A stretch of 16,124 nucleotides of DNA. It comes from Promethearchaeota archaeon. Its GTDB lineage: Archaea > Asgardarchaeota > Lokiarchaeia > Sigyniarchaeales > SOKP01. The stretch is taken from the NCBI GenBank assembly GCA_016839705.1, contig JAEOTR010000085.1:1-16124 (forward strand), written 5' to 3'. The stretch's first letter is position 1; each line of letters starts with the position of its first letter. Below the pieces are notes generated by a model. That model ran no database searches. It saw only the letters and a program-made list of their open reading frames with translations, and was not told the DNA's origin. The position numbers and the translations under genes were made by a program. Shown in pieces: positions 8,142 to 14,716 of the stretch.

Positions 8142-8411
8142 ATGGAGGATAAAAATATGTCTGATAATGAAAGCAATGAGCTTAAATATGATGAAGAATT
8201 AGACACTCGGGGGTTGTACTGCCCAGAACCTTTATTTGAAGTTAGGAATTTAAGTGAAAATCTTGAAATTGGGCAATGTTTTAAAGTACTCGCAGATGAT
8301 CCGGCAGCTGAAGAAGATCTTAAACGATGGGCTAAGAGAACAGAAACTAAACTAGTAGAATTTCAAAAAGATGGTGAGGATTTAATCTTTTATTTTCAAA
8401 AAGTTAAATAA
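8142..8411 (+). CDS. tusA: Sulfurtransferase TusA/SirA family protein
   Basis: LDTRGLYCPEP (CPxP motif) and VLADDPAAEEDLKRWA. GGAGG at 8144-8148 suggests the true start is the in-frame ATG at 8157. Confidence 0.92.
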   Translation: MEDKNMSDNESNELKYDEELDTRGLYCPEPLFEVRNLSENLEIGQCFKVLADDPAAEEDLKRWAKRTETKLVEFQKDGEDLIFYFQKVK

Positions 8412-8426
8412 TCGAGGTTATTCAAT

Positions 8427-9620
8427 ATGAGTATATATTTAGACTATCAAGCAGCCAAACCGGTTGATGTTCGAGTTATATCAGAGATGACGGTATATTT
8501 AAACAATAAATTCGCCAATCCTTCTTCCCTCCATTGTGATGGAGATGAAGCTACAGATACATTAAGCGATTACCGACGTAAAGTTGCAGATTTCATAAAT
8601 GCTCCAGAACCTGCTTCTATAATATTTACATCTGGGGCAACCGAATCAAATAATTTAGCGATAATTGGAGGTGCAATGCGAATCAAGAAGAAAGGGAATC
8701 ATATAATAATTTCAGAAATCGAACACATTTCAATTTTAAATATAGCAAAATATTTAGAAAGACAGGGATTTGAAGTTAGTAGAGTTCCTGTAGATCAGTT
8801 TGGAATTGTAAGACTTGATAAACTTGAACGCTTAATTACCAATAAAACTATTTTAATTTCTATCTCTACTGCGAGTAATGAAGTGGGATCTATTCAACCT
8901 ATAAAAGAAATTAGCGATATTGCAGTTAAAAATAAGATTCTTTTCCACACTGACGCTGTTGCTAGTGAAAGCATTATCCCATTTGATGTCCAAAAGATCC
9001 CGGTCGATATGTTAACTCTGTCTTCAAATGATATATACGGACCCAGAGGTGTTGGAGCTTTATATCTGAAAAAAGGTGTAAGAGTGAATCCGATCATAAT
9101 TGGGGGCGGTCAGGAAAAGGGGATGAGATCTGGTTCTGAAAACATTCCAGGTATAGTAGGATTTGGCAAAGCTGCTGAGATTATGAAGTCAGAAATAGAT
9201 GATGAATCAGTCAGGTTAAAACTTTTAAGAGATAAATTAATCAAAGGAATCTTAGAAACCATTCCAAAATCCTATTTAAATGGTCATCCAGAAAAGAGAC
9301 TTCCGCATAATGCCCATTTTAGATTTGATTACATTGAAGGTGAATCGCTAATTCTGAGTCTGAAAGATGAGAAAATAGCGGCAGCCACAGGTTCAGCATG
9401 TTCTTCTAAAACGTTAGAACCATCCCATACTTTAATTGCAATGGGGTTACTACATGAAGAGGCCCATGGCTCGCTTATGATTACTTTAGGAAGAGATACA
9501 AAAGAAGAAGATGTAAATGAGTTATTGGAAAAATTACCAAATATTGTAAAAAGATTAAGATTATTATCTCCACTAACTCCTCCAGATTTAATAAAAAAGT
9601 ATAATGAGGTGAATGAATAA
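8427..9620 (+). CDS. iscS: IscS/NifS-family (group I) cysteine-desulfurase-like protein with Asp in place of the PLP lysine
   Basis: NPSSLH, FTSGATESNN, EHISI, GGGQE, RSGSEN and the catalytic loop TGSACSS (Cys325) are present. SSNDIYGP replaces the canonical SxHKxYGP. SD-like GAGGT at 8414-8418. Confidence 0.93.
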   Translation: MSIYLDYQAAKPVDVRVISEMTVYLNNKFANPSSLHCDGDEATDTLSDYRRKVADFINAPEPASIIFTSGATESNNLAIIGGAMRIKKKGNHIIISEIEHISILNIAKYLERQGFEVSRVPVDQFGIVRLDKLERLITNKTILISISTASNEVGSIQPIKEISDIAVKNKILFHTDAVASESIIPFDVQKIPVDMLTLSSNDIYGPRGVGALYLKKGVRVNPIIIGGGQEKGMRSGSENIPGIVGFGKAAEIMKSEIDDESVRLKLLRDKLIKGILETIPKSYLNGHPEKRLPHNAHFRFDYIEGESLILSLKDEKIAAATGSACSSKTLEPSHTLIAMGLLHEEAHGSLMITLGRDTKEEDVNELLEKLPNIVKRLRLLSPLTPPDLIKKYNEVNE

Positions 9621-10425
9621 TATGAGTGATATGAAATCAACCCAATATTCAGAAAAAGTATTAGAGCATTTTCGAAATCCTAGAAATGTAGGGGTAATAG
9701 AAAAAGCTGATGGTTATGGAAAGGTTGGAAATCCTGTTTGTGGCGATTTAATGGAAATATTCATCAAAGTGGAAAAAGATAAAGCAGGTGATGACATAAT
9801 TGACGATGTGAAATTTAGAACTTTCGGTTGTGGTTCAGCCGTAGCAACTTCGTCAATGGTAACAACAATGGCTAAAGGCATGAAAGTTGATGATGCTTAT
9901 GAAATTACTCGAAGTGATGTTGCTGAAGAATTGGATGGATTACCCCCAATAAAGATGCATTGTTCTAATTTAGCCGCTGACGCGTTAAAAGCAGCAATAG
10001 ATAATTATCGAGGTAAGGAAGACTCATATGTTGAAGTAGAGCATAAAGCATGTGCGGCGACAGAAGTACAAGTGATTCTAGGTATTGATGAATTTCTCGG
10101 TAAAGGTGTTTACAAGAAAGTTGATGATTTAACGGAGTTTGATAACAAAAGAGTTTTAATATTAGATACAGGAGATCAATCTTTAGAATTAGCTTTAGAA
10201 TTAACAAATCATACCGGAAGAGTTATATTAGTAACATCTGCAAAATACACGCCAGGTTCTGAAGAATTAAAAAAGAAGCTCAAAATGTCTGATGTAAAGA
10301 TTTTGCATCAATCTGAGTTATTAGAAATTCAGGGAACTGATGATGTGGAGAAGACGATTATACACGATACTGATGAGAATGAAAATTATGAGCTCTTTAT
10401 CGACGTTGTAATAATTCTTGAATAG
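9613..10425 (+). CDS. iscU: IscU/NifU-N Fe-S scaffold fused to a C-terminal degenerate thioredoxin-reductase-like (NADPH-domain) module
   Basis: YSEKVLEHFRNPRNVG, GNPVCGD, FGCGSA and LPPIKMHCSNLA give all three scaffold Cys, followed by about 120 extra aa. GAGGTG at 9606-9611 favours the ATG at 9622 as the start. Confidence 0.9.
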   Translation: MNNMSDMKSTQYSEKVLEHFRNPRNVGVIEKADGYGKVGNPVCGDLMEIFIKVEKDKAGDDIIDDVKFRTFGCGSAVATSSMVTTMAKGMKVDDAYEITRSDVAEELDGLPPIKMHCSNLAADALKAAIDNYRGKEDSYVEVEHKACAATEVQVILGIDEFLGKGVYKKVDDLTEFDNKRVLILDTGDQSLELALELTNHTGRVILVTSAKYTPGSEELKKKLKMSDVKILHQSELLEIQGTDDVEKTIIHDTDENENYELFIDVVIILE

Positions 10426-10447: not shown

Positions 10448-11581
10448 CTATTTTTTCATAGATTCTAATATGTAGTCAGTTATATATTTACTATCTTTAT
10501 ATGTTTGATTCTTATAATTCACATATCTAAAATTAAAAACACATAGAGGACAGGACGAGATTAAAACTTTTGTTTCTATTTTATTGAATAATTCTTTTCC
10601 AATTTTAATACAAATACTACTATCAACACCTCTAATTCCAGATCCTGCTCCACAACAAGGACCTTCACTAGGGGTAACTGCTAGTTCATTTATCTTCAAA
10701 CCACATTTTTTTAGTAGTATTCTAGGCTCAGAGAAAAGAGGACCATTTTTGTATTTCCTCCCAAGTCGACATGGATCATGATAAGTAATTGTTCTATTCA
10801 AGGGTTTTAGGTTGATTTTACCTTCTCCTTCTAGTTCATAAACAATGTCAATTATATGTTTCACAGTTAAATCATAATCCTTAAAGTATTTCCGATAAAC
10901 TTTATCGAAAGCATATAAACAACCCCCGCAAGTTACTAACAAATTCTTTACACCAATTTTCTTAAATAACTCAATGTTTTCTTTAAAGATTTTTTTTGCA
11001 ATATCAACGTTTCCTGCTGAATAGATATATTCCCCACAACAGGGTTCATTTTCTAAAATCTTAAAATTATAGCCTGCAAGCTTTAATATCTCATATGGCG
11101 CACTCGCACTTTCTCTAACTCGAAATGATGACATGCAGCCAAAAAAAAGTAACGTATCAGAGTTTTTCTTTTCAAAGATTTCTTCCTTTTTATATTTTTC
11201 AAGTAACCAATCTAACCGTTCATCTGGGTTTCCTCCAACTGAATTGTCTTTTTCAACTATTCCCTTAATAATTTTTTTGTGATTCTCTAATGGGCCTTTA
11301 TTTTCTTCAACTATTTTAATTTTTGAAGAATGAATAATATCTGCTATTGGTATAGATTGTTGACATACTAAATTACAGGATGCGCACAAAGTACACGTAT
11401 AAATGCCTAGAAGCTCTTCATTATTTATCTCTTGATTATTAAATATCTTTTCCGCAATCTTTAATCTCCCATTTGGAGATTTATATTCTTCTTCAGTGAC
11501 TTTATAGGTGTCACAAACCTCTAAGCATGTTTTACAATCCAAACAAGATTGTATGTAATTTAAAATCTCTTTTTCATTCAT
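10448..11581 (-). CDS. Fe-S oxidoreductase, HdrD/GlcF/GlpC-like: two 4Fe-4S motifs plus two CCG domains
   Basis: CLDCKTCLEVC and CTLCASCNLVC; FFGC...EPCCG...TCGGC; YHDPC...PCCGAGSG...SCPLC. Confidence 0.9.
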   Translation of the reverse strand: MNEKEILNYIQSCLDCKTCLEVCDTYKVTEEEYKSPNGRLKIAEKIFNNQEINNEELLGIYTCTLCASCNLVCQQSIPIADIIHSSKIKIVEENKGPLENHKKIIKGIVEKDNSVGGNPDERLDWLLEKYKKEEIFEKKNSDTLLFFGCMSSFRVRESASAPYEILKLAGYNFKILENEPCCGEYIYSAGNVDIAKKIFKENIELFKKIGVKNLLVTCGGCLYAFDKVYRKYFKDYDLTVKHIIDIVYELEGEGKINLKPLNRTITYHDPCRLGRKYKNGPLFSEPRILLKKCGLKINELAVTPSEGPCCGAGSGIRGVDSSICIKIGKELFNKIETKVLISSCPLCVFNFRYVNYKNQTYKDSKYITDYILESMKK

Positions 11582-12328: not shown

Positions 12329-14716
12329 ATGGAACGTGTAATAATTGTAGGTGGAGTCGCTGGTGGGGCAAGCGCAGCAGCAAGACTTCGTCGCTTAAAA
12401 GAAGATTATGAAATCATTATGCTTGATAAAGGTCCTTATGTTAGTTTTGCAAACTGTGGGCTCCCTTATTACATTGGAAATATAATAAAGGATCGTGAGT
12501 CTTTAGAACTCGTGACTCCAGAAAGGTTTCTTGAAAGGTTCAATATTGATGTAAGGGTAATTAATGAGGTAACATCAATAGATAAAGAGAAAAGGAACGT
12601 TAAAGTCAGAGATTTAAGTAAAAATAAAGAATATACTCTCGAATATGATTCCTTAATCTTAGCAACTGGATCAAAACCTATAGTTCCACCCTTCCAAGGC
12701 CTTGATCAAGTCCCATATTTTACTGTGTGGACAATTCCAGATGCTGTAAAAATAAGGGAATATGTTGAAAAATATCATATCAAAAATGCCGTTATTGTTG
12801 GTGGAGGATTTATTGGCTTAGAGATGGTAGAAAACTTAGCAGAGAAAGGTGTTAGAGTAAAAATCGTTGAAATGTTAGATCAGGTTATACCCCCTATGGA
12901 TAAAGAAATGGCGCAGTTTATTCATCAAGAATTAATTTTGAATGGAGTATGCCTTGTTTTAAAAGATCCAGTTGATTCCTTTGGAAGTTCTGACGACGAT
13001 AAACCATATATTAAAACTAAAAGTGGGAGAATAATCGAAACAGATTTAATTATTTTATCCATAGGGATTAAACCTCAAAGTGAATTAGCAAAAAATACCG
13101 GTTTAGAAATATCAGAAAGAGGATATGTGGTAGTAAATAAAAGAATGCAAACATCTGATCCAAATATCTATGCTGTGGGAGATGTTGTTCAAGTTCAACA
13201 TTTTCAAACTCAAAAACCGATCTCAATGGCTTTAGCAGGTCCTGCAAATAAACAAGGAAGAATAGCGGCAGAAAATATTGCTGGGAGAAATTCAGAATAT
13301 AAAGGTGTTTTAGGAGCGTCTGTTGTTAAAATTTTTGACATGACCGTTGCAATGGTAGGTTTAACAGAAAAACAGTTACAAAATCTAGATATCGAATATG
13401 ATAAGATATATATCCATCCAAATAATCATGCAGGGTATTATCCTGGGGCCGTTCCTATGGCACTCAAACTGATATTTGAAATTCCTTCGGGGAAAGTTTT
13501 AGGGGCTCAAATAGTAGGTGGTGCTGGGAGTGAAAAAAGAGTGGATGTATTATCAACAATTATAAAAATGGGGGGAACTGTCTTCGACTTAGAAGAATTA
13601 GAATTAACCTATGCACCACCTTATGGTTCCGCAAAAGACCCTGTAAATATGGCTGGATTTGTTGCAGCGAATTATCTTAGAAAGGACATGCCTATTTGGC
13701 ATTGGCATGATTTTAGTAATATCGCAAAAAACGGGGGAATATTATTAGATGTCAGAACTAAAGAAGAATTTGCTGCAAGAACTATTGAAGGTTCAATAAA
13801 TATACCAATTGAAGAATTGAGAACCCGACTAAATGAAATTCCTTTCGATAAACCAATTTTTGCCTACTGTGAAGTAGGATATCGGAGTTATTTAGCATTA
13901 AGAATTCTTTTACAAAGTGGTTTTAATGAAGCGTATGAATTGACTGGAGGATTTAAACTTTTTGAGATGGCAAACGCTACCACAGAAGAAATTATGGCGG
14001 CATGCGGAGGATCCGAAAATGTTATCGAAGAATTTGTTCATGAAAAAGCTACTAAAACTGATGATTATATAGAAGTTGATGCTAGTGGGGTTTCATGCCC
14101 GGGACCATTGAATGCCTTAATTAAAGGGCTTGAAACATTACCAGAAAATAAGAAATTAAAAATATATGCAACAGACCCAGGATTTAAATCTAGTGTTGAG
14201 GCATATTCTAAATTGAATGAAACTGTAAAATTGTTATATCTTGGAAAAGAAAAAGGGATGCTAGTTGCGATTTTAGAAAAAGGTGAACATATTGTAGAAA
14301 CTGTAACACTTGTTAAAAAGAAAACTAGAAAGGAATTAAGGTCTCCTGACGCACCTCCAATTTCAGATATTAGTGTTGATGAGTTATATGAACGCCTTGA
14401 TACTGAAGATGAACCACCACTTTTAATAGATGTACGAACGCCACAAGAATATAATGGTCCCGCAGGTCATATTAAGAATACTAAATTGATTCCATTAGGA
14501 GAGCTTTTAAATAATACAGATGATATACAAAAATATAAAAATGATGAAATCGTCTCTATTTGCCACTCTGGTTCACGTTCTATGATGGCAGCCCAAATAT
14601 TAGCACGAGCAGGATTCAAAGATGTCAGAAACTTAACAGGTGGAATGATGATGTGGCATAGAAAAGGCTATCCTTTTAAATCAGAAGAATCGAGAATGAA
14701 AGGAACTTCTTATTGA
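12329..14716 (+). CDS. cdr: CoA-disulfide/persulfide reductase fused to rhodanese, TusA and a second rhodanese domain
   Basis: FAD motif GGVAGG, SFANC (Cys43), NAD(H) motif GGGFIG...VE, YAVGD and YAPPY. RHD1 has DVRT...YCEVGYRS (Cys514), the TusA domain has DASGVSCPGP (Cys590), and RHD2 has DVRTPQEY...ICHSGSRS (Cys745)...GGMMMW. Confidence 0.92.
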   Translation: MERVIIVGGVAGGASAAARLRRLKEDYEIIMLDKGPYVSFANCGLPYYIGNIIKDRESLELVTPERFLERFNIDVRVINEVTSIDKEKRNVKVRDLSKNKEYTLEYDSLILATGSKPIVPPFQGLDQVPYFTVWTIPDAVKIREYVEKYHIKNAVIVGGGFIGLEMVENLAEKGVRVKIVEMLDQVIPPMDKEMAQFIHQELILNGVCLVLKDPVDSFGSSDDDKPYIKTKSGRIIETDLIILSIGIKPQSELAKNTGLEISERGYVVVNKRMQTSDPNIYAVGDVVQVQHFQTQKPISMALAGPANKQGRIAAENIAGRNSEYKGVLGASVVKIFDMTVAMVGLTEKQLQNLDIEYDKIYIHPNNHAGYYPGAVPMALKLIFEIPSGKVLGAQIVGGAGSEKRVDVLSTIIKMGGTVFDLEELELTYAPPYGSAKDPVNMAGFVAANYLRKDMPIWHWHDFSNIAKNGGILLDVRTKEEFAARTIEGSINIPIEELRTRLNEIPFDKPIFAYCEVGYRSYLALRILLQSGFNEAYELTGGFKLFEMANATTEEIMAACGGSENVIEEFVHEKATKTDDYIEVDASGVSCPGPLNALIKGLETLPENKKLKIYATDPGFKSSVEAYSKLNETVKLLYLGKEKGMLVAILEKGEHIVETVTLVKKKTRKELRSPDAPPISDISVDELYERLDTEDEPPLLIDVRTPQEYNGPAGHIKNTKLIPLGELLNNTDDIQKYKNDEIVSICHSGSRSMMAAQILARAGFKDVRNLTGGMMMWHRKGYPFKSEESRMKGTSY

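Follow-up and report, generated by a model that had tools for sequence, protein, structure and literature searches.

What can an IscS homologue do once the lysine that should form the Schiff base with pyridoxal phosphate (PLP) has been replaced by an aspartate? The question is raised by one gene in the 16,124-nucleotide stretch of archaeal DNA that we analysed (hereafter, the window), which the initial annotation had read as a pseudo-enzyme or altered-mechanism IscS of the Archaeoglobus fulgidus class. On the basis of sequence and of analogy with A. fulgidus, we consider it likely, with a probability of roughly 0.8, that the product (IscS(D)) is not a desulfurase and instead pairs with IscU, with Cys325 acting as cluster ligand or sulfur hand-over point and with sulfur supplied as sulfide or via TusA-type carriers. 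The gene and its informative codons are the following:

8427..9620, + strand: IscS-like protein without the Schiff-base lysine, A. fulgidus IscS2 class (P0001), 397 aa, assigned by PF00266, PDB match and tree
8457..8459, + strand: K11 codon in YQAAKP, a clade-specific lysine where the Lys-type NAATTP has its second threonine
8961..8963, + strand: A179 codon, at the Gln183 position; A, P or S in the core clade, Q in 116/120 Lys-type sequences
9021..9032, + strand: S199-S200-N201-D202 codons (tct tca aat gat) in place of S-x-H-K, in the frame of 8427-9620 and followed by IYGP to 9044
9399..9401, + strand: C325 codon, persulfide/ligand cysteine of the mobile loop GSACSS, from the residue comparison
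9477..9479, + strand: M351 codon, at the position of the arginine for the substrate alpha-carboxylate (E. coli R354), from the residue comparison and pairwise alignment

Because the Pfam Aminotran_5 profile (PF00266) matches the protein from end to end (profile positions 1-371 of 371, 5e-73), the open reading frame encodes a full-length homologue of class V enzymes and no fragment. In a PDB profile search, IscS/NFS1/NifS structures matched across residues 3-388. The top match was A. fulgidus IscS2 (4eb5_A; also 4EB7 and 4HVK; E 7e-136, residues 4-383), which carries an identical SSNDIYGP, in agreement with the initial annotation; the next entry, 4R5F, is the D199K mutant of the same protein. 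D202 aligned with D199 of 4eb5, with the lysine of the 4r5f mutant and with the lysine of a Lys-type paralog from the same genome, and it is thus an aspartate that occupies the Schiff-base position, while N201 replaces the phosphate-binding histidine. Pairwise alignment with that paralog (50% identity) placed LSSND opposite SASAHK, DAVAS opposite DAVQA and YQAAKP opposite NAATTP; the loop GSACSS is the same in both proteins. These motif changes and the intact loop cysteine had all been read correctly from the DNA alone, and a further change had been missed: LMITLGR stands opposite LRVSLGR, so that the substrate arginine is lost at M351.

The window protein falls below every NCBIfam equivalog cut-off (NifS, 461 against 530.75; IscS, 396 against 548 and 643). 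Along with the equivalog score, it lacks the Schiff-base lysine and the R354 and Gln183 equivalents of a canonical cysteine desulfurase (EC 2.8.1.7), and it retains the loop cysteine C325, the stacking histidine H100 and the pyridine-nitrogen aspartate D176. It has the type I fold, the Asp/Glu in the SSND motif, the loop cysteine and the clade placement of the A. fulgidus-type lysine-less IscS. We conclude that the gene is best classified with A. fulgidus IscS2, as a paralog of the type I cysteine desulfurase IscS that lacks the lysine; the previous reading as a pseudo-enzyme or altered IscS of that class agrees with the PDB match, and the loss of activity itself is what we would predict from the residues. 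Public records label the protein "cysteine desulfurase (family protein)", which bears out the expectation that automated annotation would mislabel it.

We compared the active sites of 37 core-clade and 120 Lys-type sequences, using E. coli IscS residue numbers mapped on to the positions of the window protein. The K206 equivalent (D202) is D or E in the core clade and K in the Lys-type sequences, and the H205 equivalent (N201) is invariantly N in the core clade against H in 99/120. At the R354 position, the lysine-less clade has L, Q, E, V or M, whereas 119 of the 120 Lys-type sequences have R. The position of K11 holds K in 34 of the 37 core sequences and R in the remainder, as opposed to T in 108/120. 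The loop cysteine C325 (C328) is invariant in the core clade (37/37) and present in 119/120 Lys-type sequences, and H100 (H104), D176 (D180), T72 (T76), S199 (S203), N151 (N155) and E152 (E156) are kept in all core sequences. In E. coli IscS, Gln183 hydrogen-bonds the O3' of PLP, and variants at K206, Q183, D180 and H104 lose activity (PMC9978102, from which the residue roles are also taken). The pocket for the cofactor ring and phosphate is thus preserved, whereas the residues for aldimine formation and cysteine binding are gone, a pattern that fits a bound, non-catalytic B6 cofactor. If PMP is bound, its amine could find a partner in the conserved carboxylate at 202.

The main rival to a non-desulfurase function is residual B6 chemistry that does not require the lysine. 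The bound cofactor would still be catalytic and still mobilise sulfur, perhaps only in complex with IscU, TusA or DsrE, through a pre-formed PLP-cysteine adduct, a PMP-type half reaction or another lysine such as K11. The cofactor pocket is perfectly conserved, beyond what a mere scaffold would strictly require, and some B6-dependent chemistry is therefore still conceivable. Moreover, the ring and phosphate ligands and the acid-base histidine are invariant in archaeal and bacterial members alike, position 202 is always acidic and not random, which suggests a specific interaction, and K11 is a new conserved lysine in the N-terminal segment of the active site. E. coli K206A, too, is reported with a very slow residual reaction (PMC9978102). 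However, the substrate-carboxylate arginine and Gln183 have been lost as well, and A. fulgidus IscS2, which has the same N-terminal lysine (SAKP), is described in PMC8918507 and PMC7585200 as having no cysteine desulfurase activity and as holding PMP (PLP in the complex) non-covalently. Restoring its lysine (D199K) reportedly does not bring back normal PLP binding. The behaviour of the A. fulgidus protein thus disfavours K11 as a substitute Schiff-base lysine, and K11 is also missing from deeper D-type branches (L089, P0123). We regard lysine-independent catalysis as unlikely.

The surroundings of the gene point to a function together with IscU. The features concerned are:

8142..8411, + strand: TusA sulfur carrier, 89 aa, CPEP cysteine motif (PF01206, 6.6e-19), ending 15 nt before IscS(D)
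9613..10425, + strand: IscU scaffold (PF01592, 3e-47) with a C-terminal NAD(P)H-like domain; start at 9613, 9622 or 9631
10033-10422, + strand: C-terminal domain of IscU, about 130 aa, an NAD(P)H domain of the TrxR/FNR type without the FAD domain
10448..11581, - strand: HdrD-like CCG/4Fe-4S protein (PF02754, PF13183), between the cassette and the flavoprotein
12329..14716, + strand: CoA-disulfide-reductase-like flavoprotein with rhodanese, TusA and a second rhodanese domain, 795 aa (PF07992, PF00581 twice, PF01206)

A scan with one genome per species returned 585 relatives, and our locus counts refer to the best 80 of these 585 loci. Among these 80, TusA lies upstream of IscS(D) in 76, with the CPxP motif in 76/76. 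In loci fetched separately by Pfam search, TusA was found within 1.5 kb of 10/10 D-type genes versus 0/11 Lys-bearing ones, a contrast drawn from related genomes and given as counts with no statistical test. A DsrE-family gene sits between TusA and IscS(D) in 40 of the best 80 loci, among them every bacterial cassette in which IscU is fused, as well as the Hel-, Sigyn-, Thor- and Odin-type loci; Pfam confirmed it in the two examples searched, L022 and L085 (PF02635, 4e-14 to 4e-16). These genes encode about 120 aa (L022:2580-2939 and L085:2622-2984), and a VCEAS cysteine is conserved in 27 of the 40 copies. The lineage of the window lacks DsrE: the gene is absent from the window itself, and one protein query found none in the genome.

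IscU follows IscS(D) closely. In the window its start overlaps the end of IscS(D) or comes within 10 nt of it, and among the best 80 loci the two genes overlap or are separated by no more than 16 nt in 75/76; the lone outlier (-373) is due to the IscU frame of L081, for which a start too far upstream was called. The IscU part (residues 11-136) has the three cysteines and the Asp and His ligands all present, and the cluster ligands are intact in 75/76 among the same 80. The C-terminal extension, kept in 74 of the best 80 loci with the bacterial ones included, matched 2zbw in a profile search of the PDB (2.6e-15), and its AF2 model (pLDDT 87) gave Foldseek TM scores of 0.81-0.84 to TrxR/FNR. By sequence and model, it is a homologue of the NAD(P)H domain found in thioredoxin reductase or TrxR-type ferredoxin-NADP reductase. 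Nucleotide binding by this domain is doubtful, since its glycine loop is degenerate (DTGDQS versus GGGDSA in TrxR); there is also no HRR motif. The cassette thus reads TusA, (DsrE), IscS(D), IscU::TrxR-like domain, and it spans Asgard lineages and several anaerobic bacterial phyla.

In most Asgard loci, a gene for a two-domain B12-binding protein (PF02607 and PF02310; 7284-7919, + strand, in the window) lies directly 5' of TusA, with 72-93% identity. On the other side, the HdrD-like CCG protein is conserved in the nearer relatives according to the neighbour table, and about 54 of the best 80 loci have a flavoprotein homologue on the downstream side of the cassette; these loci are Asgard except for one weak partial match in an Aminicenantes locus. 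Pfam also found OsmC and rubrerythrin genes downstream in the window.

Such a neighbourhood may suggest a sulfur relay not dedicated to Fe-S assembly, in which persulfide or polysulfide would be handled for detoxification, energy metabolism, thio-cofactor synthesis or tRNA thiolation, and IscU would be a redox or cluster-bearing accessory. The run of sulfur and thiol-redox genes in the window (TusA, CCG protein, OsmC, CoADR-rhodanese-TusA-rhodanese and rubrerythrin) speaks for it, and TusA and DsrE are classic carriers of dissimilatory sulfur metabolism and thiolation (PMC11094781). Yet no partner is invariant in Asgard and bacterial loci alike except TusA and an IscU whose cluster ligands are complete, and the CCG protein and, apart from the Aminicenantes match, the flavoprotein are absent from the bacterial cassettes. 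Furthermore, in the A. fulgidus complex IscU bears a [2Fe-2S] cluster whose fourth ligand is the loop cysteine of IscS (PMC8918507, PMC7585200 and PMC13066941). The A. fulgidus literature invoked in the initial annotation is borne out by these sources. We judge a relay outside Fe-S assembly to be improbable, even more so than lysine-independent catalysis.

The lysine replacement is conserved. SSND, SSNE or SAND is found in 120/120 of the closest protein clusters, all of which keep GSAC, and the nearest homologues, 84-92% identical, are named Promethearchaeota, Lokiarchaeota, Thor- or Hermodarchaeota, in line with the Asgard-like origin proposed from the DNA. Among the best 80 of 585 loci, the codon at position 202 is acidic in every case (GAT 59, GAC 16, GAA 3 and GAG 2), and synonymous variation is frequent in the four motif codons. 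Compared pairwise with seven relatives, the gene has a dN/dS of 0.04 to 0.07 (about 0.05), with dS near saturation. Taken together, the conserved acidic codons, the synonymous variation and the low dN/dS show strong purifying selection on the gene and selection for an acidic residue where the lysine would be. In a metagenome bin (93% complete, 6.8% estimated contamination) with a functional Lys-type paralog that could make this copy dispensable, one might suspect a mistake in sequencing or assembly, or a duplicate of the Lys-type IscS that is drifting as a pseudogene, but such an origin is ruled out by the dN/dS and by conservation, the frame being intact over its full length, the acidic motif recurring in 200 independent sequences (120 clusters and 80 loci) and the operon being conserved across two domains.

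In a FastTree phylogeny of 177 sequences, in which A. fulgidus IscS itself is absent, one clade (45 rows, SH-like 97) unites all D/E-type sequences and three other lysine-less variants, with the core SSND clade (SH-like 99) nested inside it. The window protein falls within this core, among Loki, Hod and Hermod sequences. Since the bacterial copies (WOR-3, Zixibacteria, Stahlbacteria, Aminicenantes and Humimicrobiia) group with Hel- and Sigynarchaeal ones, the tree suggests transfer of the lysine-less IscS between domains. A separate lysine-less IscS/NifS-like cluster branches among the Lys-type sequences (P0150, P0173, P0181, P0185, P0215, P0252, P0253 and P0269), with SAQG, SAHT, SAQQ, SARS, AGNQ, AANN, SPHL and TAHR at the lysine position. 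This separate branching shows independent losses of the Schiff-base lysine in the IscS/NifS family.

A close match (at least 71% identity) was found in 67 of the 68 sampled genomes of the window's own family. A tally of D-type genes by identity over 301 Asgard genomes was dropped below about 58%, where counting by identity alone is unreliable given the 50% identity of the Lys-type paralog, and the family-level figure alone is used. Far from being rare, the lysine-less class is near-universal among Asgard genomes. Neither this commonness nor the Lys-type paralogs of the same genome had been recognised in the initial annotation.

The genome contains two Lys-type IscS genes, on contigs C72 and C85, with SAAAHK/SASAHK, DAVQ, NAATTP and the arginine present. 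The C72 and C85 copies share synteny and may thus stem from two strains or from a duplication. Two plain IscU genes in tandem lie 3 kb from one Lys-type IscS. The first of the pair (G000:C85:74241-74642; L011, ~1501-1902) has an in-frame TGA (GNEI*KNLTQYPTCGD) in an insertion of about 10 residues just before the first cluster cysteine; this codon may encode selenocysteine, disrupt the gene or be an error.

A search for SufB/D (PF01458) that was positive in 14/14 control genomes gave no hit in the 93%-complete bin, nor in the complete cassette-bearing chromosomes of two Promethearchaeota and one WOR-3 (G301-G303; CP070805, CP070831 and CP070795). Those complete genomes have both D-type and Lys-type IscS. 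We also considered the D-type protein as the sole class V enzyme of a genome, and rejected this for five Asgard genomes, each of which has a Lys-bearing SufS-like gene; one Helarchaeota bin falls outside this rejection. A second kind of lysine-less class V protein, SufS-like (type II), was seen in Asgard family f9 (L111, L114, L117 and L118, in G046, G075, G200 and G055). It has S-[GA]-N-[IVT] at the lysine and Gln at the arginine position, keeps the loop cysteine, and has a normal Lys-bearing SufS-like gene next to it in these genomes.

How might IscS(D) work, then, if it is not a desulfurase? It would most likely form no internal aldimine with PLP and bind no cysteine as a substrate, and since both abilities have most likely been lost, it would probably abstract no sulfur from cysteine itself. 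Ordinary cysteine desulfuration would be left to the separate Lys-type IscS genes. With the IscU encoded directly downstream, IscS(D) would probably form an (IscS-IscU)2 complex, in which Cys325 of the mobile loop would be lent as fourth ligand, or as sulfur hand-over point, for a [2Fe-2S] cluster under construction. The protein would probably still hold vitamin B6, as PMP or PLP, non-covalently as a structural ligand that faces the conserved carboxylate at 202. The sulfur would be delivered as sulfide, or as persulfide on the co-encoded TusA, and DsrE in relatives and the rhodanese-bearing flavoprotein downstream in the window may be additions to the relay.

We infer the sulfur donor and the direction of flow from gene linkage, and TusA adjacency as such gives no direction. 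In E. coli, sulfur flows from IscS to TusA. The persulfide-relay version of the sulfur supply has, in our estimation, somewhat less than an even chance of being right. More speculative is the proposal that the TusA-(DsrE)-IscS(D/E)-IscU::TrxR-like cassette is a distinct, cysteine-independent Fe-S machine. TusA/DsrE would relay sulfane sulfur or sulfide to the loop cysteine of IscS and to IscU, a structural PMP would be held by Asp or Glu, and the cassette would have spread between Asgard archaea and anaerobic bacteria to serve as the main housekeeping Fe-S system of Loki-type archaea in which no SufB/D was found. We put this forward tentatively, and rather doubt it as a whole.

In favour of the non-desulfurase function we count the identity with the A. 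fulgidus class, the four changed catalytic and substrate positions, the dN/dS, the coupling to IscU, the linkage to TusA and the Lys-type paralogs. Against it we count, besides the conserved cofactor pocket, that one characterised relative, at an estimated identity of about 60%, is its basis, that there is no DsrE in the window, and that the accounts of the A. fulgidus protein disagree on PMP versus PLP.

From where the A. fulgidus-type IscS-IscU complex obtains its sulfur is acknowledged to be an open question (PMC8918507), and the Asgard cassette suggests a concrete, testable route, from TusA/DsrE persulfide or sulfide to Cys325 and on to IscU. The finding bears on the Fe-S machinery of the archaeal ancestor of eukaryotes. 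For annotation, it means that metabolic reconstructions should leave such genes out of the count of cysteine desulfurases. Our partial literature search found no paper on the Asgard copies or on the TusA-DsrE-IscS(D)-IscU::TrxR-domain cassette.

The class itself is already known, and the window gene is ordinary for its lineage. Lysine-less IscS of the A. fulgidus type has been known since 2012-2015. A. fulgidus IscS2 shares with the window protein the type I fold, SSNDIYGP, the SAKP/AAKP motif at the N-terminus and the GSACSS loop, and it likewise lacks the Gln (DATAS versus DAVAS) and the substrate arginine (LLLTLGR versus LMITLGR); the identity of about 60% is our estimate, as the search gave bit scores. 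In contrast to the A. fulgidus partner, the IscU of the window has an extra TrxR NAD(P)H-like domain, and the host is a Lokiarchaeon instead of a sulfate reducer; the TusA directly upstream is a feature we describe from the window side alone. Canonical IscS/NifS proteins (E. coli IscS, 1P3W, and the paralogs of the same genome) have the same length, fold, cofactor-ring and phosphate residues and loop cysteine, whereas the window protein is without the Schiff-base lysine, the substrate arginine, Gln183 and His205 and is TusA-linked, which the Lys-type loci are not.

Methanosarcina acetivorans IscS1, noted in 2020 as lacking the catalytic lysine and proposed to be A. fulgidus-like, occurs beside a functional IscS2-IscU2 (PMC7585200) and resembles the window protein by description. 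It may represent an independent loss, as our tree shows more than one loss of the lysine. Finally, the minimal ISC system (MIS, MisS-MisU; Garcia et al.) is likewise a two-gene core of IscS-like and IscU-like proteins with no chaperones or carriers, common in anaerobic archaea. However, MisS is described as a cysteine desulfurase, while the window copy lacks the catalytic residues and its class brings TusA, with or without DsrE, and a fused IscU domain.
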